Shown here one piece after another: positions 3,001-32,701 of a DNA stretch of 64,000 bases. Origin of the DNA: Azolla caroliniana (taxonomy: Eukaryota > Plantae > Polypodiophyta); the NCBI GenBank assembly GCA_043228905.1, contig JBHGNT010000006.1, forward strand, positions 13,454,001-13,518,000, written 5' to 3'. Made by a program: the position numbers and the translations under genes. The notes under the pieces are model-generated. The model searched no databases. It saw only the letters and a program-made list of their open reading frames with translations, and had not been told where the DNA came from. The first letter of the stretch is position 1. Each line of letters opens with the position of its first letter.

Positions 3001-4613
3001 TGTTCGCTAGATCTAGGCTATTAGTAGTATTAGTACTATTAGATATCTCTACTGTAATAGGCTCGGGTTTAGTACAATTAGAACTAGCAACTATTTGGTT
3101 TACCTGCCTTCTTGGCCTATGGGACACTTTATTGCAATGTGTCCTGGTTTACCGTAGTAGAGACATAGTCGATTCATTCGGCATCGCTGCTTTTCTTCTT
3201 CGGATAATGGTCCTCAACGACGTGTAGTGTCAATCTCCATTGGAGACGGAGTATTCACTGGAGGCGCATTATAGTACTCCCTCGATAAAGGTTTTGCTAC
3301 TATTGAGGCGTACATGGGCTCTGCTCTTGCCCTCGGCATCTATAGCTGTCGTTCCGAACGTCGCTCAAAGAGGCGGTTGTCACATCTCACCGCGCGACTG
3401 ATTGCTTTTGTTAAGGACTTTGGCTCTTCAGGGAAGGTCAAGAGTAAATCCTTGACATCGTTTCATAAACCATAACGAAATTGCTCCATCAACGCTTGAT
3501 CATCCCAAGGGATGTCAACGGCGAGTAGTCGGAAATCTGCAGCATATGCAGAGGCTAGACGATCTCCTTGGGGTAATTGCCGGATTTTGTTGATTGCAGT
3601 CCTTATGCTGTCAGTATCTCCAAAGCATGCTTTAAACTCACCTATAAACTCTTCAAAGTTGTTGAGTAATGGAGACTCCTTTTCCAACAGTGGAGCGAAC
3701 CATGCCAACGCTGAGCCACTTAACAACGTCCCTACTAAACCCACTCGTGATGCATCGGTAGGATATCGGGAAGGATGCATTTGAATAACTAATCGTACCT
3801 GATTAAGGAACCCTCTAAACTACGATCGTGTTCCATCGAACTTCGTGGGAAGGCCAATCTTGGGTTCCTTATGAAGCCCTTGTGTTCCGGGGCCTTGTTG
3901 TTGCATCGCTACGATGGTAGCTTCGAGTTGTTGCACGCGTAATGCAAGTTCCTCATGTTGTTGTTGCGTTTGCTGCTTTTCTAAGGAGATTTGTTGAAGA
4001 TCCCCCAGCAACCATTGATTTTCTTGTTCCGAAGCAAGGAACTTCTCTTTCAAGCATTAAAACTCTGAGAAAACAGATTGATATTCCTGAGCGCTAACAG
4101 TGACCATGGGATGAAAAGAAAAGAGGAATAAGATATTAGTATGAAGGGAGAGAGACAGAAGGGAAAATCGGTTCAAACTGTCAAGAATAGCACTAAACCG
4201 AGAGAGAATTAGTACTAAACAGAGAGAATTAGTACTAGAGAAGGGAAGTACTATTAGTACTAAGAGGAAGAGAGAAGAGGAGAGAGAGAGATAGCGGGGA
4301 CGAGAGAGAGAGAGAGATGATGATAACAGATTTTATATTATAAGAAGAGTAAGTACAAAAGGGCTATGAGTCTAAAGACTGGCGTTGAACCGATTTGGTT
4401 TGAAATAATGCCTTGTTCCTCCTTTTATAGTGTTCTAAGGAATACTCCTGAAGTTTCTAGAATGTTCCAGAGAAATCTGGAATATACATCAATTTTCTAT
4501 AATAAAACATAAATGAAAATAATATTCTACGTATTACAATGTATGGTCTAATGGTCAAGAGATCGACCCATGTAGCATAAGGTCATGGGTTCGAGTCTTG
4601 CCATATCATGACA
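1..4613 (-). mobile_element. Rearranged Tcn1-like chromovirus (Ty3/gypsy), 3' part outside the window; gag, duplicated protease/RT-N and interleaved integrase/RNase H fragments
   Basis: ORFs 321-1154 and 2061-2930 both encode LLDSGG protease and the RT N-terminus. Gag fragments lie at 3463-4053. The sequence is highly similar to the complete copy at 6891-12574. The 5' LTR is at 4179-4613. Confidence 0.9.
4179..4613 (-). repeat. 5' LTR of the rearranged chromovirus
   Basis: TGTCAAGA...TCATGACA termini; homologous to LTRs 6891-7342 and 12144-12574; adjacent non-tRNA PBS at 4165-4176. Confidence 0.9.
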
Positions 4614-4616
4614 TGC

Positions 4617-5339
4617 ACGCCAGTCTTAAGGCTCTTAGCCACTTTGTACTTATCTTTCACATAGTATATTAGCTGTTGTCATCATCTTTCTCTCTCTCTG
4701 TCTCCTCTTCTCTCTTCCTCTCTTGGGAATCTTACGTTGTCCCGTCCTCTTAGTACTAATAATATCTACGGTTACCACCCACAAACCGACGGCCAAGCCG
4801 AACGAACAAATCAACTGCTGGAGTAGTATCTACGGTGCTTTCTTAGCTATCATCAGGATAAATGGGCAGATATTCTCCACTTCGCTGAATTTGCCTATAA
4901 TAACTCTATCCACGCATCGACTAAAGTGACGTCATTTTATGCTTATACGGGATGTCACCCTCGGTGGGGTCTCTCTCGTCCTCGTTATCTCTCTCTCTCC
5001 TCTTCTCTCTTCCTCTCTCGGGAGTCTTACGCAGTCCCGTCCTCTTAGTACTAATAGTACTTCTCTTCTCTAGTACTAATTCTCTCTCTGTTTAGTACTA
5101 TTCCTGACATTTTGAACCAATTTGGTTCAAAACAATGCCTTGTGCCTCCTTTTATAATGTTTTTTGGAATAATCCTGAAGCTTCTAGAATGTTCCAGAGA
5201 GATCTGGAATATACATCAATTTTCTATGATAAAATATAAATGACAATAATATCCTACAAATTACAATTCATAGTCTAATGGTAAGAGCTCGACCCATGTA
5301 GCATAAGGTCATGGGTTCGAGTCTTGCCATATCATGACA
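4617..5339. repeat. Scrambled chromovirus LTR: R-U5-PBS inverted relative to U3, with an embedded integrase fragment (~4765-4970)
   Basis: 4617-5109 is the reverse complement of the LTR R-U5 and ends CCTGACA. It is followed by TTGAACCAATTT (5112-5123) and then U3 in the original orientation ending TCATGACA at 5339. Confidence 0.8.
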
Positions 5340-6989
5340 ACGGCGAGATGAGTGTTACCGGTAGACGCAAGATACCCGGAATAATGACAGAATAGCTACT
5401 AGGATTACCAGGATGAACGATATGAGCGATACAACTGGGATCACTCCCCCGGTTACAACCAACGGAGGGAGGATCAAGGAAACTATGAAAACCGGCCCCG
5501 ACAGGGTTACCGGAACAAAAAACGCTTCAACAAAAAATGGAACGCTAGAAAGGTGGTGGACCGGACAATGGCACACCAAGCACCCAACCGACCACCAATA
5601 GGACCTCAACTAGGTACTGGAGCGACCACCAAATCCAACAATACCCGGAAAGCGTACTGCTACTATTGCCGGCAAGAAGGACATTACAATAATCAATGTC
5701 TGGTTAAAAGCTATGAGAAAAGACCCACCATAAATATGGTGGTAGTAGAAGTCGTCGACATACAACAAGTCACCACCAAGGCAAAAGGCAAAACAACGGA
5801 GTGGGAAACACAGGAGGCAATCCGAAAGCAAGCCACCGAGTGCGTGAAGAAGGCAAATGAGCAAAATGTGATTGAGCTTGAACAACAAAAGGAGAAACCA
5901 AAAGGGGCCACCGACACGATTCAGCCGGAAAACTCAACATGGAAAGCGTTACAAGAATGTCAGATTACGCTGCCATTGGGACGATTATTACATCTAGTGC
6001 CCCGGTTTACGGAAGGGCTGAAATAAGGAATGACCACATCAATTCCGTTGCCTACTCCTACGTTCTTCTCAAATCTGGAAGAAGGGCCAGCAATGGTAGA
6101 CACGAACAGTCCGGCAATCACCGCCATCGTCAAAGGACAATTGTGGACGGAGGATCGGGCGTGAATGTGATCAATCTACGGACTTGTAATACCCTGGGAA
6201 TCCAGGAATGGGAGCCTTGCCCATTTTGGCTCCGAATGGTGGATATAAGTTCGGTAAGACCTACTGGTTTGATACAGGATCTAGACGTAACTATTGGCGG
6301 TCACGCATTCCGCATTTCGGCGGTGGTTCTCCAACTCAATGCACAAGGTTCTTACCCGCTATTGCTGGGCCGCCCATGGCTAAAAACAGCGCATATCAAA
6401 CAAAACTGGCGGAAAAACATGATTACCTTCCCATGAGGAAAGACTAAAGTAAGGGTACCTACCCACCCTCGAGCAAGTATAGGCAAGGAGCTGACACTGC
6501 TATATGTGGAAGGTGTAAACATGCTCGAGGGGCTTGCAGACGAAGAGGTTGACCAATACTTAGAAGAAAACCCAAAAATTGTACCCCTATTTGAAATCGA
6601 TGTGGCAGAAGCAGTATCACCATATAGAATGCAATCGGACGACGCCGTCGAGGAACTGGATCGGGAAGTTATCAGAGAATTACGACAAGCATAGGAAGCT
6701 CTGGAGAGGGAGATGGCAGTATCCCAACGCGTGAAAGCATCCCAGTTAGAAGAAGTGAACTTAGGGACCGGGGATGACGCTAGACCAGTTCATATTGCTA
6801 AGGAAATGTCACCAGACAACAGGACGGCGATGATCACTTTATTAAAGGAATTCTGGGACGTATTCCCCTAGTCCTATGAAGACATGCGGGTGTCATGAAC
6901 AGTACTGAGACAGAGAAGGAATTAGTACTAAACGAAGGATTAGTACTATGAGAGGTGTGGAACTTCTTCGAGAGAAGGAAGAAGTGAGC

Positions 6990-7047
<58 letters not shown>

Positions 7048-7163
7048 TGATAAGAAAGATATTTATTATATGAAGAGAATATACAACGGTGGCTAAAAGG
7101 CTTAAGACTGGCGTTGAACCAATTTGGTTCAACATAATGCCTAATGCCCTCTTTTATAGTGTT

Positions 7164-7211
7164 TTCAGGAGTAATCCTGAAGCTTCTAGAATGTTCCAGA
7201 GAAATCTGGAA
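7164..7211. promoter_or_regulatory. Heat-shock-element array in LTR U3, immediately upstream of the TATA box (7152-7158, - strand)
   Basis: Perfect GAAgcTTCtaGAAtgTTC core (7179-7196) inside ten in-phase pentamer units; core retained in all four LTR copies. Confidence 0.7.
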
Positions 7212-7265
7212 TATACACTAATTTCCTATAATAAAATGTAAATGAAAATAATATCCTACGTATTA

Positions 7266-7337
7266 CAATAGATGGTCTAATGGTCAAGAGCTCGACCCAT
7301 ATAACGTAAGGTCATGGGTTCGAGTCTTGCCATATCA
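7266..7337 (+). other. tRNA-like Pol III promoter module (A-box + B-box) at the U3 end of the chromovirus LTR, antisense to the element
   Basis: TGGTCTAATGG (7273-7283) and GGTTCGAGTCT (7317-7327), 44 nt apart as in tRNA genes; also at ~4544-4600, ~5271-5325 and ~12505-12560. No intact acceptor stem. Confidence 0.65.
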
Positions 7338-7342
7338 TGACA

Positions 7343-7355
7343 CTATCCCCCCTTT
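7343..7355 (-). other. Polypurine tract of the chromovirus
   Basis: AAAGGGGGGATAG on the - strand directly abutting the 3' LTR. Confidence 0.9.
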
Positions 7356-10300
7356 AAAACGACGAGTGTCACGAGTCGTCTTGGATTGAGGACCCGGTTT
7401 GTGTGGATATTGACGATGGAAGTCTTCAAGAAGAGCACGAGCATTGGTTACATTCTCGATCGGTTCCCAAGTACGTTCGCTGGGACTATAGCCTAGCCAA
7501 TCGACTAGATAGTAGAGCTTGTTGCGAACAATCTTGGAATCAAGAATGGCGGCAACCTCGTACTCCGGCCCATCTTCAAGCTCGATCGGGGGTGGAGGTT
7601 GGATAAGACGTTCTGGGATGGTGCTCTCGTGGTAGGGTTCGAAGAGAGAACTATGAAACACCGGATGTATCCGAAGTTGAGGAGGTAGATCGAGACGAAA
7701 AGCAACATCATTAATCTTTCCAATAATTTGGAAAGGACCTAATCGCCGATAATCCAACTTCTCACATGGGCGAGTAGTCTTGATGTGTCGTCGTAGCAAC
7801 CACACCCGATCTCCAATATTAAAACTAGATGGAAGTCGATGACGATCCGCGTAGACCTTGTGTGTTTGTTGAGCTTGCTGGAGATGAGTAAATAAATCCG
7901 CTTGTATCTTGCGTAACCGCTCCAAACGATCCTCCGCGCACGGATTTGTGGACACCTCTAGGGTTTCAAGTACACTCCACCGGGGGTGACATCCCGTATA
8001 AGCATAAAATGGCGTAACTTTAGTGGATGCGTGGATAGAGTTGTTATAGGCAAATTCGGCGAAGTGGAGAATATCTGCCCAGTCGTCCTGATGATAGCTG
8101 AGAAAGCACCGCAGATACTGCTCCAACGTTTGATTTGTTCGTTCAGCTTGGCCGTCAGTTTGTGGGTGGTAGCCGGAAGAGAGGTTACAAGTGACCTTGA
8201 GCATGTTAAAAAGGTGCTTCCAGAATTTTGACACGAACTGGGGTCCACGGTCGCTGATGATACTATCGGGGAGTCCATGATGCCGACATACTTCACGCAT
8301 GACAATTTCGGCAGTGTCTTCACTGGAGATCTCCTTAGTACATGGCAAGAAATGAGCCATCTTCGTATATCGATCGACCACCGTTAGAATCGCATTGAAC
8401 CCCTTAGAGGCTGGAAGATCTGTGATGAAGTCTAGAGCAATGGATTGCCACGGCTTGCTTGGAATTGATAATGGTTCTAATAAACCATATGGATGATGCC
8501 TTGGCATTTTCGCTCTGCAACATGTATCACAAGTCCGAACAAAATCCTCGACAAATTGTCGCATACAGGGCCACTAGAATGATCGTTGTACTAAATGTAA
8601 TGTTTTAGTACTACCAAAATGCCCAGCTGTATATGTGTCATGACAGTTTTGTACTACTCGAAGGCGGCAAGAACCATTAGGAACATACAAAAGTTCTTTA
8701 AAGAAGAGTAATCCATCATGGTATTTGAATTGCCGATAGTCCATACCTGGTGGTTGCGACTGTGAACACGACGCTCGAGAGGGATCAATTTGTGCTAGTA
8801 TAGCTTGGGCGAACGCATCTGTCTTCAAGTCTTCACGTATGGTATCGATAACGCGGGAATCCATAGGCATGTCAAAGATTTGTGTTGCTTGTAATCGTGT
8901 CGGTCCCAAGATGACTTGTTTTTGGTTATCGAAAGCTGGCTCGCCGGGACGGGGTGCTAGATACGAACGCCGTGATAATGCATCTGCCTTCCCTTGGTGC
9001 CTCCCCGGACGATATGTAATTTTGAAGTCGAAACGCGTGAGGAAGTGGGCCCATCGAGCTTGACGTCGATTCAACACACGAGCATCCTGAAAGTAGGCAA
9101 GATTCTTGTGGTCACTAAATACGGTGACTGGATGAGAGGATCCCTCCAAAAAATGCCTCCATTGCATAAAAGAATCCACTATTGCCAATAGCTCCTTATC
9201 ATGGATTTCGTAGTTGATTTCGGCGGCATCAAACTTGCGTGAGTGAAAAGCCACAGGATGTAGCTTTTCATCATTCCCTTGTTGTGACAGAATGCTCCCC
9301 AATGCAAAATCCGATGCGTCAGCTTCGATAATGAATGGTTTCTCCGGATCGACATGAGCTAGAATTGGAGCCGATGTAAATGCTTTTTTAAGACTCTCGA
9401 AAGCCATGTCCGTTTCTTCAGACCAGATGAACGGTTGTCCCTTCCTGGTAAGTTGTGTGAGAGGTAGAACGATCTTTGAGTAATCCTGTATGAACTTCCG
9501 ATAAAAATTGGCAAAGCCTAAGAAGCATTGCACATCCCGTACCGAACGCGGAGTCTGCCATTCTACCACCGTTCTGACCTTAGCTGGGTCCATGGAGATG
9601 CCGTCTGACGAAATGATGTAGCCGAGAAATTCCACTTGGTTGCACCCGAAACTACATTTTTCTAGCTTTGCATACAGACCATGTTCTCGAAGTCGTTTTA
9701 GTACTAATAGTACATGAGAATCATGTTCTTCTTGGGTCTTTGAATAAACCAGTAGATCATCCAAATAGATGATCAAACAATCATCCAATAGATCTCGGAA
9801 TATATCATTAGCCATGTGCTAGAAGACTGCCGGCGCATTAGTGAGGCCGAACGGCATGACAGTATACTCGAAGTGCCCATATCTGGTGCGAAACGCGGTC
9901 TTCCATTCGTCTCCTGGTCGGATCCGTACGAGGTTATATGCTCCCCGTAAGTCGATCTTCGTGAAGAACCTGGCACCATTGATCCGTTCTAAAAGACTTG
10001 AGATAAGGGGAAGAGCATACCTATTCCTGATTGTAACCTTATTCAAGCCACGGTAATCTACAACGAGACGAAGCGATCCATCTTTTTTCTTGACGAAGAA
10101 AATGGGCGCACCGGCTGGAGATTTCGAATGCCGAATGAAACCATTTTCCAAATTCTCCTCTATATAGGCCCGAAGGACTTCCAGCTCGGTTGGTGACAAA
10201 TTGTAGATCAGTCCCCATGGCGGCTCTTTTCCCGGTTGTAAATCGATGGGGCAATCGTACGGTCGATGATGAGGAAGAGTGTTGGCTTGTACTTTATCGA

Positions 10301-10886
10301 ACACATCGGTGTAATGGCAATACTTCTCGGGAAGTTGAACGGTGGATTCTTCTTTAGTGGTGTTGGAGGGGTTTACTGATATTGCAAAGAGGAACATTTC
10401 CTCCTTGTGCCCTTCTTTACGCAACTGACGTAGCGAAATGGTTGCCATCTTCTGAGTTGACCCTTGGGTTTGTCGACACCGGATTTCTCTTGTTCTCCAA
10501 TCTATGTCAGGGTTATGTAACTCGAACCACGGTAGTCCTAAAACTATAGGATGTTCTGGGATACTAATAATATTAAATGATACTACACATACTAAGTTAT
10601 CTAGGACAATATTAATGGGCTCTGACTCTTCTAGGATATTTCCGGAAGCAATGGGACGTCCATCAATGACTACTACAGAGGCTGGACACTGGAGTTTTCT
10701 TAGGGATATCTTATGAGCTTGAGCAAATTTCTTATCCATAAAGCAAGAGTTAGCTCCGGAATCTAGGAGTGCTAGGACATGTACTGGAGGGGTACTTTTA
10801 GTACTAACTATTACTTGGGCTACGAACACATCACTAACTTGCTTAGAGGGAATGGAACCACTAATGGGCTGCACAGATCTAGGGCT

Positions 10887-10931
10887 GTCCAACCAAACGG
10901 CTCCTATTTTGGCTGGACTTAGTCGTTTAAC
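10887..10931 (-). promoter_or_regulatory. Putative -1 programmed ribosomal frameshift signal between gag and pol
   Basis: G_TTA_AAC heptamer (10925-10931), a 6-nt spacer and an 11-bp stem GTCCAGCCAAA/TTTGGTTGGAC. pol is in the -1 frame and has no ATG start. Confidence 0.7.
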
Positions 10932-12070
10932 TCTTCTTCTAACTGACTAAGGACATCAAATTTGTTTGCTAGATCTGGGATATTAGTACTATTAGGACTA
11001 TCAGATATCCCTACTGAAATAGGCTCGGATTTAGTACAATTAGAACTAGCGACTATTTGGTTTACCTGTCTTCCTGGCCTATGGGGGCAATTTATTGCGA
11101 TATGTCTTGGTCCACCGCAGTAAAGACATAGTCGATTTGTACGGCGTCGCTGCTTTTCTTCTTCGGATAATGGCCCTCGACGACGTGTAGTGTCAATCTC
11201 CATCGGAGTCGGAGTATTCGCTGGAGACGCATTATATGACTCCCTCGGAAAAGGTCTTGCTACCACTGAGGCGTAGGTGGGCTCTGATCTTGCCCTCGGC
11301 ATCTGTAGCTGTCGTTCCGAACGTCGCTCAAAGAGGCGGTTGTCACATCTCACCGTGCGACTGATTGCTTCTGTTAAGGACTTTGGCTCTTCGGGGAAGG
11401 TCAAGAGTAAATCCTTGACGTCGTTGCGTAAACCATAACGGAATTGCTCCATCAACGCTTGATCATCCCAAGGGATATCGGCGGCGAGTAGGCGAAAATC
11501 TGCAGCGTATGCGGAGGTTGGACGGTCACCTTGGCGTAATCGCCGGATTTTGTTGATTGCGGTCCTGATGCTGTCAGTATCTCCGAAACATGCTTTAAAC
11601 TCACCTAGAAACTCTTCAAAATTGTTGAGTAACGGAGATTCCTTTTCTAATAGTGGAGCGAACCATGACAACGCTGAGCCACTTAACAAAGTGCCTACTA
11701 AACCCACTCGTGATGCATCGGTGGGATATCGGGAAGGATGCATTTGAATAACTAATCGTACCTGGTTAAGGAACCCTCTAAACTGCGATCGCGTTCCATC
11801 GAACTTCGTGGGAAGGCCAATCTTAGGTTCTTTATGAATCCCTTGTGTTCTGGGCCCATGTTGTTGCATCGCTACGATGGTGGCTTCGAGTTGTTGCACG
11901 CGTAATGCAAGTTCCCCATGTTGCTGTTGCGTTTGCTACTTTTCTAAGGAGATTTGCTGAAGATCCTCCAGCAACCGTTGGTTTTCTTGTTCCAAAGCAT
12001 GGAACTTCTCCTTCAAGCATTGGAATTCCGAGAAAACAGATTGATATTCTTCAGCGCTAACAGTGGCCAT
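10919..12070 (-). pseudogene. gag: Chromovirus gag with one premature TAG (11936-11938)
   Basis: ATG at 12070 is in frame with ORF 10919-11899; KFDGTRSQFRGF, PMEID and CLYCGGPRHIAINC knuckle. The sister copy has CAG at the stop position. Confidence 0.93.
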
Positions 12071-12129
12071 GGGATGAAAGAAAAGAGGAATAAAAGATTA
12101 GTAGGAAATGAGAGAGACAGAAGGTAGGG

Positions 12130-12141
12130 AAATTGGTTCAA
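12130..12141 (-). other. Self-priming-type primer binding site
   Basis: TTGAACCAATTT lies 2 nt downstream of the 5' LTR and lacks the TGG start of a tRNA PBS. It is exactly complementary to AAATTGGTTCAA (12347-12358), ~33 nt downstream of the LTR TATA box. Confidence 0.8.
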
Positions 12142-12143
12142 AC

Positions 12144-12574
12144 TGTCATGAACAGTACTGAGACAGAGAAGGAATTAGTACTAAACGAAGGATTAGTACT
12201 ATGAGAGGTGTGGAACTTCTTCGAGAGAAGGAAGAAGTGAGCGAGACAGAGAGAAAGAGAGAGAGAGAGAGAGAGAGTGATGATAAGAAAGATATTTATT
12301 ATATGAAGAGAATATACAACGGTGGCTAAAAGGCTTAAGACTGGCGTTGAACCAATTTGGTTCAACATAATGCCTAATGCCCTCTTTTATAGTGTTTTCA
12401 GGAGTAATCCTGAAGCTTCTAGAATGTTCCAGAGAAATCTGGAATATACACTAATTCCTATAATAAAATGTAAATGAAAATAATATCCTACGTATTACAA
12501 TAGATGGTCTAATGGTCAAGAGCTCGACCCATATAACGTAAGGTCATGGGTTCGAGTCTTGCCATATCATGACA
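12144..12574 (-). repeat. 5' LTR (431 bp) of the complete chromovirus
   Basis: Direct repeat of 6891-7342 with TG...CA termini. Confidence 0.97.
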
Positions 12575-14938
12575 GTGGGGGCTAGATCCTTAGTTGTACC
12601 AACACCAAATACACCTCAGTAAGGATGCCAAACCAGTAGCACAACTGTGTTACCGGATGAACCCTATCTATGCGGCAAAGGTCAAAGAGGAAATTGACAA
12701 GTTGCTACAGGTAGACGGAGGCGAATACAACAGTAGGAAGCAGGAAAAAAGTACCCGACAGTCAGACAGAGCCGACGTTACCGGATAACGACAAACAAGT
12801 GGCCGGCAAACATAAATATGGGGAAAAACTGGGATACGGACTCGGTGCTTCCAGTTAACTAAAAACAATTAATAATAATAATAATAAAAGAGAAAGAAAG
12901 AAAAGTCATCATGCAGAGGTGAGGAGCGAATGAGCACTTTGAAAAGATGTGGTGGGTGGCTAATTAAAGCCTTTAAAAAAGGCGCACCATGTGTCAACTA
13001 ACTGATATATTAGTACAGGACGTGCATGCGTGGGAATCAAGAAAAGGCGTCACGCATGGAGAAAGAAAACATTTGCCGCGCAAAGTCCCTTTCATTTTGC
13101 GAACATAGAGATCTCAGCGTACACAGACGATTACGAGTGATCAGGTGAGAGCATGCAGAATACACAGGCACACCCATCTTACCACAACCTACCGACTCCA
13201 ACGACGACATGGACTGCATGGTACTCTCAGAAGCGGCTAAGAAATGGCTGAAGCAACACGGTGTAGAGGGATTCTTGCGAATAGTCAAAGCACCGCCGCA
13301 CGGAGATGCGGAAAATGTCGTTAAAAACATCGACACGAAGGTTATCACCAAGGAAGCCATCCGAGCCATCACCGGCCTATCGGAAGGGGGAATCTACTCG
13401 ATCGACAACCCTTCGCAGGAGCTGTTGACGAGATATTTTGGGGAATACTCCCTAGGCAGCAAGGCATACCGCACGCAAGGCGGTGAAGACCTTTTGTTTC
13501 GGGAAATTGCTCGGGTACTCCTCGAGTATGGCCATGTATACCCCCGAGCACCGGCGATGCCTAGGAATAGAGCTGGTTTGATGATAGCCACCTACGAGGG
13601 AGTACAGGTGGATTGGCCAGTAATGATTGCCAACGGCCTAAACGCTGCCATCATCTCAATAAAAGATGGCAAAAAGATGTGGACAACAATGGCGCAATGG
13701 CTCACACTATTAGCACCGCTAGTGGAGCCCATGAAACAAAGGAAGAGGGGAAGACCGACAAAATCGACCTCCAAAATAGTTTCAAAATGGCAACAACTCC
13801 TGGCTACCTAGGCGAAGGAACGGCCTAATCGGAAACGGGTGGTAGAGAACGAGACATTGGTAGACACCTTGAGGAGACCGTTGAAAATCAAGCCGCGCCT
13901 GTCGGAACAACAAGCAAAACAGCAACCGGAGAAAACGCAGGGGCAAGATCCCTTGGCAGCGTTAATCAACAACAAGACCCTGGAAGAAGATCAGCAAGAA
14001 GATGAGACAACCGAGACGCTGCTACGGCGTCATCACACAAGTGAAAAGGGCCATGAAGGGGGCGCATCCAGGCTAACGGAGGACAATATACGGGAACCCC
14101 TCCCTGAGGAGCCGCAACTGAGGAAGGCGGCAGAACTGGCTCAATAGGAATCGGGGACGGAGCAAGTGCGGCGGTAGGACATCGTGGAACCAACGGTCCA
14201 GGACACGGCAGTACCGGTGGACCAAGAACCGATCATTGAATTGTCGGTATCACCACCATTGCAGCAATAGCCAGAATCGGAGTGGTCATGTGACGTAACC
14301 ATCAATAGTAGGCTCCGGACCAGTGAAAACGCCATCCCACGACCAGACCCGACACGGCCAAAAGGCACCAGCAGTCGATGGCTCCGATGGGTAGCAGAAC
14401 AAGTGACTGGTGTTGTCTGCCAGTTAGAAGCGGAAGAGAAAGCACAGGAAGCCCGGTTGCTAGCCACAACCGAGGAATTAGAGATGTCCTGGTCAAGAAT
14501 CCGGAGCATGGAAGAAGACATAGAGAAGGCCAGAACAGAAATGGCCAAGTCGGTCATAGAAGGACCGCAACAATCGGAACCGGTGGCCCGGGTAACTCTA
14601 CAGAACGATCAAACCCTGGTGACAGCGGCAGGCCCAGATACTCCTAAATCGTCAACACAGGAGCTCGCCATGCTAAGGGAAGACTTGGCAGCACAAGAAG
14701 CCTTAAAAGCCAGGGAACAAGAATTGAAAAAAGCGGCGGAGGAGGAACAAACGAGAACGGCTGATAGCCTCCACCGAACAGAGGAAAGCTTGAGAAGAGG
14801 TCATCAAGCGTATGACCAGCTGAAAGAAGAGAAAGACAGAATTCTGCAAGAAAAAGAGAAACTCCGGAGGACAGCGGAAGTATAGATTCAGTGCCTCAAA
14901 GAAGAGCTCCGGCAACAAAATGACCGTGAGGATTGTGC

Positions 14939-16094
14939 TGTCGTGAAGATTTTCGGCAATGGTGTGAAAATGACGTAAAACGTACAAAATTGAGTATGAT
15001 TCATATAAAACAATAATAGTGAAGATACTAATTTTAAGTAAGTTTAATATCTTAGTACAAAAAGATAGAGGTCTTGAAGAGCTTTCGAATGCACTTTACT
15101 ACATAAGAAACGGACATCTAAGTGTCAACTTATGTGGGTAGGAAGTTTACAAAGACAAAGAGAAAAATAAAGTTGCGAGATATCCCACATAGACAGGAAA
15201 TAAGGATCTCACCATATATAAGGTAGAGCAAAATCTATTATCTTTGTGTCTATGTGTGGAGCATAGAGAGTTCAAGGTGACTTGAACTAAGCTATTGGAT
15301 GAATGGGCGTGGCCTGGCTACTTGCAAAGGTTTTGGCCAACCAAAACCGGACTGACGACGGAGCCAGTGAGCCGGCAACGTAACCGGAGACCGGACAGTA
15401 ACTGGCATCCATCGGCATCCAACGACGGAACCGGACAGTAACCAGCATCTAGCGACCAAACGGTAACTGGCATTCGACGATCGGACGATAACCGGGATGC
15501 GGCAATCGGCGGCTAGATGGATAAATAAATAAATATATATATATACATATACACAAGGAAGGGAAGTAAGGATTTAAACCTTGCACCTCCAAGTTGAGTG
15601 TCAATAGACTTACCACTAAGCCAACACATTTTCTTCGAATTATATTTTTATCATTGTAACTTTACATGTAAATTCTCATGTGTGAGAGCTTTGATGATAA
15701 CATGGCATGCATGCATTGCGTGCACGTCTTGCACCCTCACATGCACCATATGCATGGGGGCATCTATAAAAGAGTGGAGGAATCAAGCAAAAAGGGGATT
15801 TTTTGATCAAGCAAGCTTTGTACTTTATATCAAAATTAATATGAACAAGAAAATTCGTTATCCTTTTGAAGAAATCTTGTTTCTTAAATCTAAAAGTTAA
15901 AAGTTCAATCTTAATCTCTCTCTCCATTTCAATCTCTGTCAATCTAAAGTCAAGCGTTTAATCTCAATTTCTCTCTCTCTCAATCTATCTTAAATACTTT
16001 CTCGCTAAAGCTTGTGTGTACTTCGAGTCCTTCCGGTCCAGAACCCCGGCAGTTCGGCCTCACGATCTGCACGTAGTGACGGATCTTCACGACA
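14939..16094 (+). repeat. Solo LTR of the tRNA-Trp-primed (Phygy-like) gypsy group
   Basis: Terminal inverted repeats TGTCGTGAAGAT...ATCTTCACGACA, with the same 5' terminus as the LTR at 56189; TATA at ~15765; imperfect tandem repeats at ~15345-15515. The TSD is degenerate (GTGC/ACAC), but a 4-bp TSD restores the host frame. Confidence 0.85.
15562..15630 (-). other. tRNA-like A/B-box module in U3 of the Phygy-like LTR, antisense to the LTR
   Basis: - strand TGGCTTAGTGG (15613-15623) with D-stem GCTT/AAGT, and GGTTTAAATCC (15570-15580) in a T-like stem; homolog at ~26531-26597. Confidence 0.6.
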
Positions 16095-17334
16095 ACACTC
16101 GTCGGCTTATCAATCAAAAGCGCAAACAAAAAACCGACGACTTCGACCGATTGCACCGGGATTATAAGCATTTGGATGCTGATCCTAAGAAATTGATTAC
16201 CGAAAGTGACCGACGGCAGGAAAAGTGCAAAGAACTCTGAGAGGAACTTAACCGGTTGACGACGGCATTGATGGAAGAGTAGTTGAAGGGAGCCAAACAA
16301 TCGAAACAACTGGCGGCAACAACGAAAGAGCGACTAGACCTACAAGTGCAGCACCATGCGGAAACGGAGCGCGCTACAATGACTCTGAATAGAGTTCAGA
16401 CGACATATCAGACCCAACTCATGCACTATAGAAGCCAAGAAGTGGGAACCACAAACCTGATCAAACAATTGAAGGATGAAAAATAGGCCACGGAAAACAA
16501 GTTGAAGATGGGGCTAGGGCGGATCCGAGACATCGTACTGGCATGGAGGAATCGAACGAAGCAATTGGTGGAAGAAAGCTCAGTACAATTGTTGCGGGCA
16601 GATGCGGAGAACCGGCGGAAAGAGGGTGACAAAGTTTACATCTTGGATAAAGAAAGCATTGAAGCAATAAAAGAGGAACTAGCGGATTATTTCATATCCT
16701 TGGCTGATGAGCAGAGGGTGGCGATACGCCAGTTGGTGGCTAAACTGGATGATGACCAGTTGGAAAACCAACTCTGTTTCGAAAAGTACAAACGGGAACG
16801 ATGACGGTAAGAAGTGGCCAAGAGAACTGCAACGATTAGCATTAGTTACGAGGAGCCATCTTCAGAACAAACGCCGGTTAAAGCCGGGGGAAGCCAACCA
16901 GAGAGTACTCAAGAGGAGCCACTAGAGGAAGGTCATCCGCAGGAACTGGGGCATGCCGGACAATAGGAACTGGTTGAGCTGGAAAAGGAGGAAGAGCCGG
17001 TAAGACCAGTCGAGCCAGAAATAGAGGCAGAGCTGGTCAGACCGGCGGAGCTGCAGGCAACAGACGTCAACCAGCATTAGCCTCCGTTGGCGCCGAAGCG
17101 GAAAGAAGAGCAGCCACAACCGCAAGAACAGTAGGATGAGGAACAACAACAACAATAGACGACAGAACAGCTTCCCGAGGAAACATTAGAACGCTTAGAT
17201 CAAAGCATTTTGGACATTTTGGAGGATAAATGAAGGCCAAATCGTGGGATTCGACGTACAAGGTACTGTCCCACAGGCGTGCCATGTGTTAGCCGGCCGG
17301 CAAGGGAAGTCCAGAATGGGAAAAGGGGGATAAT

Positions 17335-17804: not shown

Positions 17805-20800
17805 AGGTGTAGTTGCATGTGTGGGGGCAAATCAAGGTGGAATGCAACATCATTGATTTGATGAGAGATGATAAATGGACCAAGTCATTGATAATCCAAC
17901 TTATCACAAGGTCTAGTGGTCTTCACATTACGTCGTAATTGACGGGAACTAAACGCTCCTTATGCGCAACGCTCGGCCACAACCGAGCTTAGAATCATAC
18001 ACAAAAAAACAGGAATGAATGCACGACACAATGAAGAGAAGAGTACATAGGATGTTTACGTGGAAAACCCAAACTAGGGAAAAAACCACGGTAGCCCACA
18101 GGCTGCAAACTATCACTATGTTACAGTGTACAACAGTAAAGCACCAAGGCAACAACCTCGAGCTTTCTATCTTCGCCACAGGCGGCGGTTACAACAGAGG
18201 CAACGACCTCTTCCTCTCTCTCTCTCTCTCTGTACACAGTTACGCGCTCTGATCTTGCACACACAAGAATGACAACAACCGCTCTGCCTCAAAAGTTTTC
18301 CCTATGTCATATTTATACTAATATGACTTTTCGGCTATTTACAAATATAGCCACGATGGACTCTCAGAAACATATTTACGAATATGTCTCTTCATCCGAA
18401 GAGAGCTCCTCACCGGGCCTGCATCATCCGGATCTTGCCGGGCACTTATCATTCGGTTCTCACCGGGTCTGCACCATCCGGCTCTCCGTAGTCGGGTACT
18501 CCTCATCCGGTTCTCACCGGGTCTTCACCATCCAGCTCTCCGTAGCCAGGTACTCGTCATCCGGTTTCGGCCTCGGCCGAGTTTGCTCATCAGCACTATT
18601 CTTCTCCCTTCCCATCCGGAGGGACCTGTCTCCCAACAGTAATAGCCATTCATGATCCCCAATTCGAAATTTTGGTTCCTCTGGTGAGGAGTCAAGACGA
18701 TGAAGATCTGCAACTTTCTTGTGTGTGGCTTGAGCCGTATGCTTATGGTGAGAAAGTGCAACATGAACTTCTTGGAGTTGGCGTGGACAATCCTCAACGG
18801 CAAGATTTTTCGAGATTTCTGGATGTTCGATCATCATTCAATGGGGATGATATCCTATGTTTGCAAAAAATGGAGTATATCTTGTTGAGGAATGAACCGA
18901 ATTATTGTATACAAACTCTGCAAAGTGTAAAAAATCCACCCAATCATCCTATTGATAATTGATGAAACATTGAAGATATTGTTCTAGAGTTCAATTTGTG
19001 TGTTCGGTTTGACCGTCACTTTGTGGATGATAGCTTGAAGAAAGTTTACAAGAGACTTTGAGCATCTCAAGCAAGTGTTTCCAAAATTTTGAGATGAATT
19101 GTGGGCCAGGATTACTAATGATGTCATTTGGAAGACCATGAAGCCGGAATACTTCTTTCATAATGATGTCTGCAGTTTCTTTATTGTTGATAGTTTTCGT
19201 GCATGGAAGAAAATGCGCCATCTTTGTGAATCGATCTACTATAGTGAGGATAGCATCAAAACTCTTTGAAAGTGGAAGATTTGTAATAAACGCCACAAAG
19301 ATGGATTTCCATGGACCAGTATGGCTGTAATAACCCATATGGTTGATGTCGCAGAATCTTTGACCGACAACACATGTCACAAGTACGAAGATAATCCTCA
19401 ACAAACTCCCGAAGATGAGGTCACCAATAGTTTTGAGAAACTAGCTCCAAAGTTTTGTGGATTCCAAAGTGTCCAACCATTGGGTTGTCATGACAATATT
19501 ACATTACTTGGAGTCGAGACGAACCATTGGGGACATACAAAAGAGTGTTACGAAAAAGTAACCCATTTTTCCATTGAAATTGGTTATAATCTTTACAAGG
19601 ATACTTGGATTTTGAAGAAGACACACGATCTGAATTGATATGATTCAATACATCTTGAGCAAATTCATCAGAAATGATACCTATTCAGATTGAATCAAGG
19701 ATCCTCGAAGCTTCAGGTGCTTCAGAGGCATTAATAGTCAATAGTCATAACTGATCAAGCCCCAAGATGACTTGCTTTTGATGATCAAATGTGGGCTCAC
19801 CTAGTTGTGGCGCCAAATAAGATCGTCTTGATAGAGAGCCTCCCTTTCCTTGTTGTACACCAGGGCGATATGTGATGAGGAAGTCAAAACGCATCAGGAA
19901 TTGTGCCCAACGAGCTTGGCGTCGAATCAAGACTCTAGCATTTTGAAAGAATGTGAGGTTTTTATGATCATTGTAAACAATGATTTGGTGGGGAGAACCT
20001 TCTAAGAGATGTCTCCATTGTTCAAACGAGTCTATAATGGCCAGGAGCTCTTTGTCGTGAATCTCATAATTGATCTCTACAACTTCAATTTTTTGCGTGC
20101 ATGGAAAGCAATTGGATGCAACTTTCCATCATCTCCAACTTGCGACAAGATACTGCCTAGTGCAAAATCAAACGCATCCGCCGCGATGATAAAGGGTTTT
20201 TCTAGGTCAGCATGAAGTAGAAGAGGAGTAGAAGTGAACGCTCTCTTTAAGTTTTCAAAAGCTTTGGATACACTAGAACTCCATGTGAACGATTTGTTCT
20301 TTCGTGTAAGCGCTCCGTGAGAGGCATCACAATGTTTGAGTAGTTCTTGATAAATTTACGATAAAAATTGGCAAATCCTAAGAAACACTGAACATCATGC
20401 ACTGAGAGAGGTGTTTCCTAGTTTAGAATTGTCTGCATCTTTGATGGATCCATAGATATACCTTGTTGGGAGACCATATACCCTAGAAACTCCACGTGGT
20501 TTTGATCAAAGTTACATTTCTCGAGTTTGGCATAGAGCCCATATTCTCGTAAGCGTTGGAGGACTTGGCGGACATGTGTGTCATGCTCTTCTTGACTTTT
20601 TGAGTAGATCAAGATGGCATCAAGATATACTATGGTAAATGAATCCAAGAAGTCACGAAAAATATCATTTGCCATGTGTTGAAAAAAGGCGGGTGAATTC
20701 GTGACACCAAAAGGCATAACCGTGTACTCAAAATGTCTGTATCGAGTACGGAATGTTGTCTTCTATTCGTCTCTTGGACGTATCCTAACAAGGTTATATG

Positions 20801-23333
20801 CGCCTCGAAGGTCTAGCTTTGTGAAAACTTTAGCTCCACTAAGACTCTCTAGTAAACTCGATATCAAGGGTAGAGCATATCTATTTCGAACTGTGATTTT
20901 GTTTAAACCTCGATAATCCACGACCAATCGTAAAGACCCATCTTTCTTCTTGACAAAGAAGATGGGTGCACCAACATGCCTTTTAGAATGTCGAATGAAT
21001 CCATTTGCTAAGTGCTCATCTATATAATCTTGAAGGGCCTTGAGTTCAGAAGGTGATAGATTATATATTAGGCCCCATAGTTGCTCTTTCCCAGGTTGTA
21101 GATCGATTAGACAATCATAAGGTCGATGGTCTGGAAGAGAACTAGCTTTAGTTTTGTTGAAGATGTCTTCAAAATCCAAGTACTTAGTAGGGAGGTGAGT
21201 ACATGCCCCTTGTGAACTAGAAGATGGATTTTCTGTTACTGCAAAGATAAACATTTCATTTGACCACCCATCTTCTCGTAAGTTTTGTAGAGATATGGGC
21301 GAGATTTGGTGAGGTTTTGAATCTTGGTTGGTAGTAACAAGGCTGTTGGATTCAGGTTTTTGCTGGAAATCATTGATTGCTCGATTTCTCCAATCAATTT
21401 CAGGATTATGAAGCTCAAACCAAGGCAAACCAAGGATAACTAGATGCTCAGGGCTACTAATTATATTGAAGGAAATCACACAAGCAAAGCTACCAAGGAC
21501 TACCCGAATTGGCTCAAATTCTTCGACTATATCCCTAGATGCAATAGGGCGACCATCAATGACTACAATGGATGCAGGACAAGGGAGGTTTCTCAATAGG
21601 ATTTTTTGGGATAAAGAAAATTGTTTGTCCATAAAACAAGAGTTGGCTCTTGAATCTAAGAGAGCAGATGCAAGAACTCGATTACACCTAGAAGTGTTAA
21701 GCTCAACTTGTGCTGAAAAAACTTTGCTAACATAATTCGATAACATGGAACCACTACTTGGGGCTGACTTTACGTATTCTGGTTTGTCCAACCAAATGGC
21801 TCCGATTTTGATTGCACTTATTCGTTTAATATTTCATTAAGCTGACTCAAGACCTCAAAACTATTGGAACGGCCTAGACATGTGGGGCTACTAGGGATAG
21901 ATGATCTAACTGGGGAATTGGAATTAAGTTTCTCACTAGTATTTACTTGATTTACTTCTCGTTTTGGGCTATGTGGGCAGATGATTGCTATGTGTCATGA
22001 ACCACCACAATACAAACATAGACGGTTTTCTCGGTGTCGTTGCTTCTCAGCTTCAAACAAAGGTCCCCCATGATGTGTTACATCGATCTTCATCGGACTT
22101 GGACCACTTGATGGAATCATGTGTGAAGTTTGGATAGTGCTCGTAGGTGTCGAGGCCTTTACTGAAGCATATGTTTGATCCGTTCTTGGTCGTGACATTA
22201 TTGACGTTCTGAACGTCGCTCGAATAAGCGATTGTCACATCACACTACACGACTTATTGCTTCTGTAGCTAATCTTGGATCTTTGTGGAAAGTTAATAAC
22301 AAATCTTTTACATCATTTCGTAGTCCATAGCGAAATTGATCCACTTCTTCATCCCATGGAATATCACAAGCTAGGAGGTGGAAATCTGCGATGTAAGGGA
22401 GGTGGGACGATCCCCTTGACGCAATCTTCGAATTTTATTGATCGTTGTTCTAACACTATCAGTGTCTCCAAATTTTGCTTGAAATTCTTTAATAAAACCT
22501 TCAAAGTGTTGGAGGAGAGGAGATTTCTTTTCTAGCAGTGGTGCAAACCATGCTAATGTCGTTCCTATTAAGAGGGTTCCTACTAGTCCAACTCGAGTTG
22601 TATCGGTTGGGTATCTATTAGGATGCATATGAATTACTAAACTCACGTGGTTTAGAAATCCTCGAAATTGTGATCGATTACCATCGAACTTCCTGGGCAA
22701 ACAAATCTTTGGTTCTTTGGGAGAGCTTTGTTGCATCGAAGCTTGTTTCGAGTTGCAATACACATGTTGATAACTCGTCATATTTTTGCGCCTTTTCTAT
22801 GCTTACTTGTTGTAAATCTCCAAGCAATCGTTGATTCTCTTGCTCTAGAGCCAGAAACTTATTTGTGAGATGCTCAAGCTCTGAGATGACTCAACCATAC
22901 TCTTGCTTGCTAATGGACTCCATGACGATGATAACGCTTGATAGGATTCTCAAGAAAAAGAAGGAAAGAAGAGAGAGAGAGAGTGAAATTGAGAGGATAT
23001 TCTAGTTCAAACTGTCAAGGCCCTAGCTTGACAAAAGAAGATTGAACAAGAGAGGAAAAGAAAGACACCAAAATGAGAGGGAAAAAGTTATTCATTACAT
23101 ACCCCATAGGGGGTTTATATAATACATCCAATGTATGTAATGGTTCCATGACCGTTATAAATAAGACCATTACGCATTCTTGTACACATGCTCATAGTTG
23201 TGCATGTGTCCATACACATACTCATCCTTACACACTCATTTACTTTACACATACACATCAATCACATCATTACACATACCCTTATGCCTCCCCATATATT
23301 CTTACGGGTAACAACTTCATGGGGTTTCATCTA
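17805..23333 (-). mobile_element. Older, degenerate Tcn1-like chromovirus (gag-PR-RT-RH-IN) with probable 5' LTR from 23013
   Basis: ORF fragments 22371-22781 (gag), 20763-21791 (PR/RT), 20418-20717 (RT, YLDA) and 18991-19404 (IN) are homologous to the complete copy; GTTCAAAC|TGTCA boundary at 23013; right end approximate. Confidence 0.85.
17940..18638 (-). repeat. Copia solo LTR
   Basis: TGACGGG...TCCCAACA flanked by a perfect 5-bp TSD GTAAT; related to LTRs 26664-27250 and 31351-31958; interrupts integrase RIGDHEWLL|RRNVK. Confidence 0.93.
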
Positions 23334-26465: not shown

Positions 26466-26663
26466 GTAAGTTGAAAATATGAATAAAATGAGAACCCGAA
26501 GGCCTAGTAGGATTTTCATGCATACCAACGGGTGCAAGGTTCGAAACTTGCACCTCCAAGTTAAGACACAATTGACTTACCATTAGGCTAAGTTGTTACT
26601 TATTGCACTTTTAAGATTATATTTTTCACATGTAAATGCTTCTACATGAGAGCTTGAATGATT

Positions 26664-29600
26664 TGAAGAGAAATGCACGGAATATCACTCGGCCACAATC
26701 GAGTAGTAAATCACTTCTATAAGAATCAAAAACAGAAATGGGAAGTGGAAAGTACACAAGAAAATGACACAAGATGTTTACGTGGAAAACCCTAATAGGG
26801 AAAAACCACGGGAGCCCACAGACTCCAAACTATCACTATGAAGAGAAGGGGTACGATCAGAGACTCGGAGGCAACGACCTCGAGCTCTATTTCTTCGCAC
26901 AGTGGCGATTACAACAGAGTATCACTCTGTATCTCTCTCTCTCCCTCTCTCTTTGTACAACAGTTACAACAATATGACAACAACACAATCACACACAAAT
27001 GTGATTGCCCTAAGTCATATTTATAGTTATATGAACTTAGGGCTATTTACAAATATAGCCTCAATGAGCTTATTCAAGACATATTTACAAATTTGTCTTC
27101 TCTTCCGGTTCTCACCGGGTCCACTGATCCGATTTCTTGATTTCTACCGGTTCTCACCGGGTCTCCTCCGGTTTCCGGATCTCTTCCAATTCTCACCGGG
27201 TCGTCTTTATTCATCACCAGATCCCATCTGAAGAGACCGATTTCCCAACAATCTCTCTCTTCACTCCGGTATGGGATGTCTTGTAACTCCGATCCATTTC
27301 TGGCATGCGTCCAGCTTGTCGGGTGTCAGCACCCTGGTGAGCATATCCGACCCGTTCCCCTCCATGTGGATCTTCGTCAGCACGAACTCTCGATCTTCAA
27401 CTCGCTCCCGGATCCAGTGGTACCTACGTTGGATGTGCTTCGTTCTGGAATGGTATGTCGCATTCTTTGCAAGGTGAATGGCACTTTGACTATCGCAGTA
27501 GAGCCGGTATTCCTCTTGTCGGCTCCCTAGCTCTCCGATGAAGTCCTTCATCCATAATATTTCCTTGTCGGCTTCCACGGCTGCCATGTACTCCGCCTCC
27601 GTGGTTGACAATGCAACCGTCTTCTGTAGCCTCGACTGCCACGAAACGGCTCCCCCTGCATAGGTCATGACATATCCGGAAGTTGATCGGCTGGTGTCCA
27701 CATCAGCCGACATATTCGAATCGGTAAAGCCTTCCATGAGGGGTTTACCGGAGCCAAATCGGAGGCACATACTCGAGGTGCCCTTCAAGTACCGGAGTAT
27801 CCATTTTACCGCATTCCAGTGCTCTTTTCCGGGGTTGGTCATGAACTGACTCACCACTCCGAATGCATATCCAATATCCAGTCGAGTACACACCATTGTG
27901 TACATCAAGCTCCCGACCGCAGAGGCATATGGAATCTTCATCATATCCGCCTTCTCTGCCTTTGTCTTCGGGCTTTGCTTACTGGATAATCTGCAGTTTG
28001 TCGGGAGTGTCGATCCGACTGGTTTTGCTTCTAACATGTTAAACCGCCGAAGCACCTTTGTCACACACTTTTCCTGTGACAGCCACAATTGCTTCTTCAA
28101 CCGGTCCCGGAGGATGTGCATCCCGAGTATCTATCTTGCCGGACCCAAGTCTTTCATTGAGAAGGTCCAGTTAAGGGCCTTCTTAAGCATCCGTATCTTG
28201 ACTTGGTCTCGTTCGACAATCAACATGTCGTCCACGTACAGGAGCAATATCAGGAGATCTCCTCCATCAAATTTCTTCACAAACACGCAGTGATCGGCCT
28301 ACGTCTTGTGGTACCCTTCATCGGTCATGAAGGAGTCAAACTTCTGGTACCATTGCTGAGGAGCTTGCTTCAGTCCGTATAAGCTCTTCTTCAGCCAGCA
28401 CATCAGGTGCTCCTCCCCTTTCTTCTCAAATCCTTCCGTGTTGATGCATGTTGATCTCTTCTTTGAGGTCTCCGTGTAGGAATGTCGTCTTGACGTCCAG
28501 TTGCTCTACCTCGAGGTCCATGCTTGCCGCTTTGCCCAATACCATCCAGATGGATGTCATCTTTACTACTGGGGCAAAGATCTCATCGAAGTCCACTCCT
28601 TTCTTTTGCTGGAACCCCTTCACCATGATTCGGGCCTTATACCTTGGTGGATTTCCGGCGTCTCCCGGTTTTAGCTCGTACACCCACTGGTTCCGGAGTG
28701 CCCTCTTTCCTTTCGGCAACTCCACCAATTTGTATGTGTGGTTCTCATGCAGGGAATCCATCTCCTCCTGCATGGCACTCAACCACTTGTGGCTGTGGGT
28801 GTCTCCCCTTGCTTCTTCAAAGCTTTCTGGCTCCCCCTCATCAGTTAGCAACACATGCTCTGCATCCAAAAATCTTCGGGGGGCTCTTCTCTCCCGGAGA
28901 GGATATCTCTGTCCTGGGTTTTTGACTGCCAGTTCCTCCATTTGTTCCTCATCCTCATCCGATTTGGGATCTTGTCCGGTTTCGGTGTCTTCTTCTTTGG
29001 TCGGTTCGGTTTCCTATCCGTATCCGGCCGGTTCGTCGAGTGTCATCCGGTTACCGGTTAACATCCAGTTTTCAACTGGGTATATCCTTTTGTCCTCAAG
29101 CCGGTTTTCAATGGATGATCTGGAGTTCGTTACCTTCTTCTTCAACTCCCAGTTGGCAATGGTCTTGTCTTCCATGAAGACTATGTCCCAACTCCAGAAA
29201 ACCTTTTTGTCGACCAGATCCCACACCCTATAACTGAACTCATCATTGCCGTATCCAAGGAATATGCATGGTCGGGACTTCGGATCCAGCTTTTCTCTCT
29301 TGTCCTTTGCCACATGCACGTATGCGAGACACCCGAACACCTTGAGATGCCGGTCAGACACATCCTTACCGGTCCATACTTTCTGCGGTGAGTCTCCGTC
29401 CAAGGGTACTAAGGGTGATCTGTTTATCACATAGGTCGTTGCCGTCAGTGCCTCAGCTCAAAACGTCTTGGGTAACTTGGCATGTGCGAGCATGCTTCGG
29501 ACTCTCTCCATTATGGTCCGGTTCATCCTTTTGGCCAACTCGTTTAGTTCTGGCGTCTTCGGCACGGTTAATTCGAGCCGGATTCCCTTCGACCGGTAGT

Positions 29601-31958: not shown

Positions 31959-32701
31959 TGAGTGACATGGTCATCATGCATAACATGCAATGCATGAGCA
32001 CCAAATGGAAATCATGCATTGCATGCATCTCATGCCTTGTATGCATGTCTTACACCCTCACATGCATCATATGCATGGGGGCATCTATATAAGAAAGGAA
32101 GGAAGGGAAAAGGGGGGGGATCAATCTTGGCATCAATCAAGCTATTTATTGAATCAACATCTAAATATTAAAGCACCTACTTATCTTATTGGTGACTTGT
32201 CTTGTTTCTCAACATTGATGTCAAGGGTTCAAACCTAGAATTGGAGTTTCCATCCATCTATCCATCTATCTTAAACACTTCCTCAATTCCCGTCTCTCTC
32301 TCTCTCACACACACAACCAAATTAGTGCGTCACTTCGGCTACCACAATTTCATTTCGTGTGGTCATTCACTCTATCTGTGGAATTCTCATCAAGAAGGAA
32401 ATAGCACCGGCAAAGATCATTTCGTCGTCGTCATCGCCCGGTAAACGTTGCACACCACCACATTACCGCCACCTACACATCAATTCTAGTTCGGATGCGT
32501 CCTTGACAACAAAGAACAACCTGACAATAAACCTAAAACGGCTAATTCCTCTCCTCCATAACCACTAGTGGATAGAGGCCTGGTGCTTGTCCGCGCCTGT
32601 GTGACACTCACATCGCGATGTTTGGCACGTGGGTCACATGCCACGTGACAACGCATCCACGCGAAGAACCACGACATCTTTGGTGAACCCGACGTGAAAA
32701 G

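Follow-up and report, generated by a model that had tools for sequence, protein, structure and literature searches.

Why would a retrotransposon that codes for its own proteins carry in its long terminal repeats (LTRs) a pair of motifs resembling the internal promoter of a tRNA gene, and carry them pointing against its own transcription? The question is raised by a stretch of 64,000 nucleotides from Azolla caroliniana, referred to here as the window, in which the initial annotation had recognised an A box and a B box at tRNA spacing in four LTR copies and had proposed that an element that is not tRNA-primed has domesticated a tRNA gene. [quoted passage not shown] Since an outward-facing promoter in a coding element cannot drive that RNA, a conserved module must serve something else.

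The host element and its antisense module

The module resides in a Ty3/gypsy element of 5.7 kb at 6891-12574 on the minus strand, which codes for gag, protease, reverse transcriptase (RT), RNase H, integrase, an SH3 domain and a chromodomain (Table 1). The insertion is young: one substitution and 21 gap columns separate its two LTRs, and its target-site duplication has a single mismatch. The pol frame is interrupted by two stops, near 8574 and near 9819, and runs 8 nt into the LTR. The self-primer, located downstream of the TATA box, pairs with the binding site behind the 5' LTR over 12 nt in five of six cases (9 nt in locus L022), and the two sides of the 12-nt pairing co-vary across families; the element is therefore self-primed, with no tRNA primer binding site, in agreement with the initial annotation. 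Its domains follow the Gypsy order with a C-terminal chromodomain, as in Tcn1 elements; the aromatic cage of that domain is present, read by eye as Y, W and Y at what we take to be the cage positions, and the nearest named match of the element is fungal. Self-priming together with an aromatic-cage chromodomain marks the Tcn1 clade in non-seed plants (PMC6317226), and the passages on Tcn1 chromoviruses used here (Neumann 2019, PMC6317226; Novikova 2010, PMC2864245) describe elements that are likewise self-primed, with an aromatic-cage chromodomain, a length of ~5.7 kb, ~440-bp LTRs and fungal nearest kin. By these shared traits, rather than by grouping with reference elements in a tree, the element is assigned as a Tcn1-like chromovirus. 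The same passages (PMC6317226, PMC2864245) contain no tRNA-like or Pol III module, and the other Tcn1-like families compared here also lack one.

Table 1. Features of the window that bear on the A/B-box module (positions count from the first letter of the window)
Feature	Position	Strand	Remark
3' LTR	6891..7342	-	1 substitution and 21 gap columns versus 5' LTR
5' LTR	12144..12574	-	paired with 3' LTR 6891..7342
Target-site duplication	6886-6890 and 12575-12579		5-bp, one mismatch
gag and pol	7335..11935	-	PR, RT, RNase H, integrase, SH3, chromodomain
Polypurine tract	7343..7355	-	adjoins 3' LTR
LTR TATA box	7152..7159	-	
Self-priming binding site	12130..12141	-	directly after 5' LTR
Self-primer	12347..12358	-	complementary to binding site 12130..12141
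Heat-shock-element-like array	7179..7211	.	alternating GAA/TTC units; predicted Pol II enhancer
AT-rich flank upstream of module	7216..7265	+	80% AT; predicted TFIIIB platform
tRNA-like module in 3' LTR	7266..7337	+	tRNA positions 1-72; antisense to element
A box	7273..7283	+	
Variable-loop-like pentamer	7309..7313	+	tRNA positions 44-48; conserved between families, outside scoring model
B box	7317..7327	+	
Module copy in 5' LTR	12498..12569	+	
Module copy in LTR ending 4613	4537..4608	+	
Module copy in LTR ending 5339	5264..5334	+	
A/B module in second, unclassified LTR	15560..15630	-	antisense; LTR at 14939-16095
Similar module in Copia-split relative of second LTR	26527..26597	-	antisense

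All four LTR copies of this family in the window carry the module, just as the initial annotation had stated. The B boxes start at 4588, 5314, 7317 and 12549, each 26 nt from the LTR tip, and in every copy an A box lies 43-44 nt upstream. The boxes read on the plus strand and the element on the minus strand, which confirms the antisense orientation, and the stretch 7266-7337 fits tRNA positions 1-72 without a gap. For scoring we used a textbook A/B-box model; each of the four copies reaches 26.5 bits, a value attained by none of 100 dinucleotide shuffles per 150-nt U3 end, whose maxima for the four copies were 10.9-15.9. Around the window copies no tail or target-site duplication is visible, again as annotated. 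In one of these LTRs, at 4617-5339, the R-U5 part seems to lie in inverted orientation between self-primer and binding site, a pair that makes up a 12-nt inverted repeat, and a further copy of the family is inserted at the edge of this LTR. Elsewhere in the window lies a 700-codon open frame (58591-60693) with no Pfam match, in what looks like an element whose repeats, at 56189 and at 61117, are 99% identical.

The A and B boxes at tRNA spacing and the AT-rich upstream flank are traits of a type 2 Pol III promoter. A tRNA fold is absent, and the module shows neither the cloverleaf nor the covariance-model match of a tRNA gene. ARAGORN calls no tRNA gene in the window, and the covariance-model check that the initial annotation had proposed came out negative, RF00005 (Rfam) giving no match to the module at E values up to 10. 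Two to five of the seven acceptor-stem pairs and zero to four of the five anticodon-stem pairs can form. A degenerate pattern of the 3' half matches 121 loci of a viral collection, 48 of which lie within tRNAs called by ARAGORN and belonging to many isotypes, so that no parent isotype can be assigned. The fern Azolla has an inflated tRNA count (PMC13578239), but a connection with the module, which is not called as a tRNA, is unsupported.

The hairpin that had been annotated over the same region is real in the window family (z -3.9 on the antisense and -5.3 on the sense strand), modest in L010 and not significant in seven other families. A conserved hairpin is rejected, since cognate arms pair no better than permuted ones (p 0.11, or 0.31 without the window family; on the sense strand p 0.08, or 0.42 without it), so the fold stands as a family-specific feature that does not co-vary between families. 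Within the window family the module doubles as an imperfect inverted repeat of ~20 bp (7281-7333), likewise family-specific, and thereby gains on its sense strand a weak resemblance to a B box (score 10.2). The self-primer region at 12347-12362 also resembles a B box on the sense strand, a resemblance that is lost in L006/L007 and in families outside the clade described below; pairing of the B box with the self-primer was considered and rejected, because the B box is unchanged in L006/L007, where the self-primer has changed.

Distribution and conservation among related loci

How widely the module is shared was followed through an integrase-chromodomain alignment, which retrieved 83 loci. Of these, 78 were processed; 31 had no polypurine tract that could be found, four had less than 100 nt of U3, and 43 were scored, 12 inside a clade that includes the window element and 31 outside it. 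Counting the window as one row, 13 clade rows were scored, and the module of L014 was added by eye; the clade as a whole comprises 16 rows, with U3 unreadable in L008 and L037. The module is present in all 14 clade rows with a readable U3, at integrase identities of 56-88%, and A-to-B spacing is 43-44 nt in 13 of them and 46 nt in L012. Most clade rows score 18-26.5 (L014, 18.4), and the shuffle p is at most 0.03 in 12 of the 13 scored. The exception, L018, scores 7.7 (p 0.22), and its LTR is 80% identical to that of L011 with the same layout. None of the 31 outside rows exceeds 13.4, and three of them (L036, L039, L040) at 11.8-13.4, with p 0.01-0.02, overlap the scores of L011 and L022. A free SINE present in only a subset of LTRs, which the initial annotation had named as a refuting case, does not fit these data: the module is not a SINE insertion of only some LTRs, since it occurs in 14 of 14 readable U3s, without a visible tail or target-site duplication.

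A scan of the whole loci, 360 kb outside the clade, gave no score of at least 22.5 and 12 matches at 18-20, none of them antisense in U3. In 134 kb scanned, scores of at least 22.5 all lie inside LTRs, barring one in the pol linker of L007, a locus with two tandem copies whose protease-RT linkers carry antisense A/B-like matches near 1020 and 6344 (scores 22.5 and 20.0). These linker matches, and one at 32226 in the window, are probably due to chance. In an integrase-chromodomain protein tree, the module rows fall on one side of one branch with an SH-aLRT of 93 (quick search; 56 of 84 rows), and they do so in an RT-RNase H DNA tree with support of 99/98 (20 rows). As every clade locus derives from a single group of assemblies, clade and host lineage are confounded here. 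The window also holds an older, broken copy of the L018 family at 18843-23031 (91% DNA identity in RT-RNase H), which speaks neither for nor against the module because only ~20 bp of its 5' LTR are left.

Eight families were compared in tRNA register, and 13 module positions proved invariant in this comparison, which is biased in that eight invariant box positions served as its anchors. Five of the 13 lie outside the scoring model, namely one just 3' of the A box and positions 37, 44, 46 and 47; positions 44-47 are conserved even though they lie outside the consensus B box. Mean identity across the families is 0.90 for positions 44-48, 0.71 for the B box and 0.65 for the A box, as against 0.36 for the anticodon-arm region (24-43) and 0.30-0.39 for the flanks. 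After the B box it is 0.30, and neither the sequence nor the length of this downstream part is conserved. Fourfold-degenerate integrase sites of the same families have a mean identity of 0.41, and 0 of 48 are invariant. Set against the 13 invariant positions, this indicates that the module is kept by selection and is no neutral relic; it is under purifying selection across the clade. The boxes are not wholly fixed, for between families G10 is kept in three of eight and C61 in five of eight. A pairwise search of LTRs from distant families leaves the module unaligned and picks up the region around the self-primer together with portions of enhancer or U5; the only module that aligned to a window copy was that of L014, at 79% over 52 nt.

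DNA nearly identical to the element's is also recorded for five organisms and for metagenomes of leaves and plants. Variation inside the window family was counted as variants at 4% or more in contigs of four runs, with a contig-weighted depth that reflects subfamilies rather than single copies. Counted in this way, variable positions number 7 of 11 in the A box, 0 of 11 in the B box, 9 of 25 between the boxes, 0 of 15 from the B box to the tip and 6 of 42 upstream; the stretch 12456-12486 is also without a variant at this threshold. The 5' half of the A box is variable inside the family: in three of the four runs, A replaces G10 in 21-47% of the depth, and G replaces A14 in 6-23%. Within the family, then, conservation of the A box does not exceed that of its flanks. 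The initial annotation had described boxes that are kept while the anticodon-arm region varies; that contrast is clear only between families and holds in part within this one, where most of the A box varies and the run from the B box to the tip does not.

Position of the module relative to the Pol II promoter

Across the clade, the order of parts is constant: module, AT tract, a swappable enhancer, TATA box and self-primer. The 50 nt upstream of the module are 76-90% AT in 11 of 11 modules, whereas the most AT-rich 50-nt window of U3 in 15 outside LTRs reaches 48-74%. Between AT tract and TATA box stands the predicted enhancer, which is heat-shock-element-like in the window family, in L006/L007 and, as far as its contig reaches, in L010. 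In L011, L013, L014, L015 and L018 it is CATG/G-box-like. Because these sister families carry such arrays in place of the heat-shock type, enhancers have been swapped within the clade, and the link between the module and a heat-shock array drawn in the initial annotation does not extend beyond certain families. The heat-shock-element-like arrays at 7179-7211 of the window and at 2740-2825 of L006 are long, and they suggest that these families are heat-inducible.

The module had also been described as fixed at the tip of U3, a claim that was not borne out. The distance between B box and tip varies across the clade (26-64 nt), and the distance from the module to the Pol II promoter is 114-184 nt. 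In a second, unclassified LTR at 14939-16095, an antisense module lies about 640 nt from the tip, and the parts after it come in the same order: AT tract, CATG-rich enhancer and TATA box. The constant relation of the module is to the Pol II promoter and not to the LTR tip. A relative of this second LTR (26480-26663 and 31959-32400) is split by a Copia element at 26664-31958, which has a 5-bp duplication with one mismatch and sits 74 nt upstream of the A box of the module there.

Candidate functions and significance

Sequences of tRNA origin in LTRs are not in themselves new. The parts of the Helenus paper that bear on this (Kojima 2024, PMC10886601) already describe tRNA-derived A and B boxes in the LTRs of Helenus TRIMs and TRIMp3, state that "not a few" Repbase LTRs contain tRNA-like sequence, and put forward a SINE insertion as the origin of that of Helenus; a further source, PMC13570524, in the part consulted only cites Helenus. 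As in Helenus, both LTRs of the window element have A and B boxes, and in both cases the tRNA-derived sequence is conserved around the boxes without a functional tRNA. Helenus differs in being non-autonomous, 311-1263 bp long, tRNA-primed and thought to be transcribed from its A/B promoter, its autonomous partners being expected to use Pol II (PMC10886601); the chromoviruses of our clade are 5.7-kb coding elements, self-primed, with gag-pol, no tRNA primer binding site, their own TATA box and enhancer, and boxes that face outward. The words antisense and opposite are absent from the main text of the same paper (PMC10886601). Cassandra TRIMs, as that paper presents them (PMC10886601), likewise conserve an internal Pol III promoter in plant LTRs, but one that is 5S-derived (type 1), belongs to a non-autonomous element and starts the element's own RNA. 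Our full-text literature searches, which leave subscription journals and Repbase reports uncovered, turned up no autonomous chromovirus described as having a conserved A/B module antisense in its LTRs.

That boxes, spacing and AT flank are conserved without a conserved fold or downstream sequence points to a DNA element for TFIIIC/TFIIIB, and the module is likely a tRNA-derived Pol III promoter. The use of this promoter that we favour, and to which we give a little short of an even chance, is as a TFIIIC/TFIIIB platform acting as a barrier or chromatin opener for the adjacent Pol II enhancer. A tRNA gene or the head of a tRNA-derived SINE would have been captured once into the U3 of the clade's ancestor. 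With TFIIIC bound to the B box, TFIIIB would be positioned over the AT tract, in a back-to-back arrangement with the enhancer for Pol II, and the bound complex would maintain a nucleosome-poor patch and slow the spreading of heterochromatin from the flank; short transcripts made outward by Pol III would arise as a side effect. Genes for tRNAs can serve as chromatin barriers, and chromodomain integrases are considered to favour heterochromatin, so a barrier would benefit an element whose chromodomain integrase has that preference. The antisense orientation may be fixed through plain common descent.

Other uses deserve consideration, and a barrier and other uses of predicted bound TFIIIC/TFIIIB may fit the data alike. 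The Pol III transcript itself might be what is selected, as a self-regulating or decoy small RNA. Started in the 3' LTR, it would cross the tip of U3 and the polypurine tract in antisense; started in the 5' LTR, it would enter the flanking DNA. In favour, A box, spacing and AT flank are retained as a complete promoter layout, the module of the window family forms a strong hairpin, and a run of T4 lies 22-62 nt past the B box in seven of twelve 3' LTRs; in three of the twelve, however, T4 is absent for ~450-500 nt past the tip, in two more it occurs only at +131 and +463, and neither a fold nor the sequence and length past the B box (identity 0.30) is conserved. Simian foamy virus offers a precedent, in that A/B-box Pol III units in the LTR of an autonomous element, apart from its Pol II promoter, make miRNAs according to passages of PMC3993851, but those units yield stem-loop RNAs with terminators, whereas the chromovirus module has no conserved stem or terminator and follows the tRNA register. 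We consider selection on the transcript unlikely. Quite improbable in our judgement is a landing pad, in which bound TFIIIB/TFIIIC would steer retrotransposon integration beside existing copies and into gene-free repeat blocks. TRE5-A does target TFIIIC/IIIB (in the part of PMC3159450 used), and the window offers both the Copia insertion beside the module at 26527..26597 and the copy ending at 4613, located at the R start of another LTR copy; yet two events make no pattern, and the full-length element and the copy ending at 5339 adjoin the coding region of another Gypsy, in a flank without a module scoring at least 18.

A role in the genomic RNA would account for the fixed antisense orientation and for the conservation of positions 44-48: the sense strand of the module would be complementary to a host tRNA in its D and T arms, and would anneal such a tRNA to serve dimerisation, packaging or strand transfer. 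The invariant positions, however, include 58, 47 and 16, which are modified in mature tRNA and pair poorly, and annealing needs neither the AT flank nor exact spacing. In Ty3, with its bipartite primer binding site, U3 pairs with the primer tRNA through that tRNA's T and D arms (passages of PMC5371799), and a tRNA-like sequence in U3-R of HIV-1 is reported to promote strand transfer (in the part of PMC6468702 used), so U3 sequence complementary to tRNA arms has parallels. Both of these are tRNA-primed and match one primer tRNA; because the present clade self-primes, no tRNA is attached to its minus strand, and the constancy of the B box where L006/L007 changed their self-primer argues against pairing with that primer either, so that tRNA annealing seems to us very improbable. 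The least probable reading is that the module is the relic of a tRNA or SINE, carried along neutrally as a passenger, or that sites for Pol II factors resemble A and B boxes by chance. The silence of ARAGORN and Rfam and the variable 5' half of the A box would suit it, but neutrality is largely refuted by the 13 invariant positions and fixed spacing when no fourfold site is invariant, and chance is countered by the shuffle results in 12 of 13 clade rows.

If the favoured TFIIIC/TFIIIB platform does act as a barrier, it would be a new anti-silencing device for heterochromatin-seeking retrotransposons and a natural, compact test case for TFIIIC-site insulation in plants. A broader proposal, tentative and held with less confidence, is that autonomous plant retrotransposons turned a domesticated tRNA-gene promoter into a portable TFIIIC/TFIIIB boundary, so that in two or more LTR families of this host every LTR would arrive with a barrier of its own, placed back to back with an exchangeable enhancer for Pol II. 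Were that true, the many copies of these families would also seed sites for the Pol III machinery across the genome.
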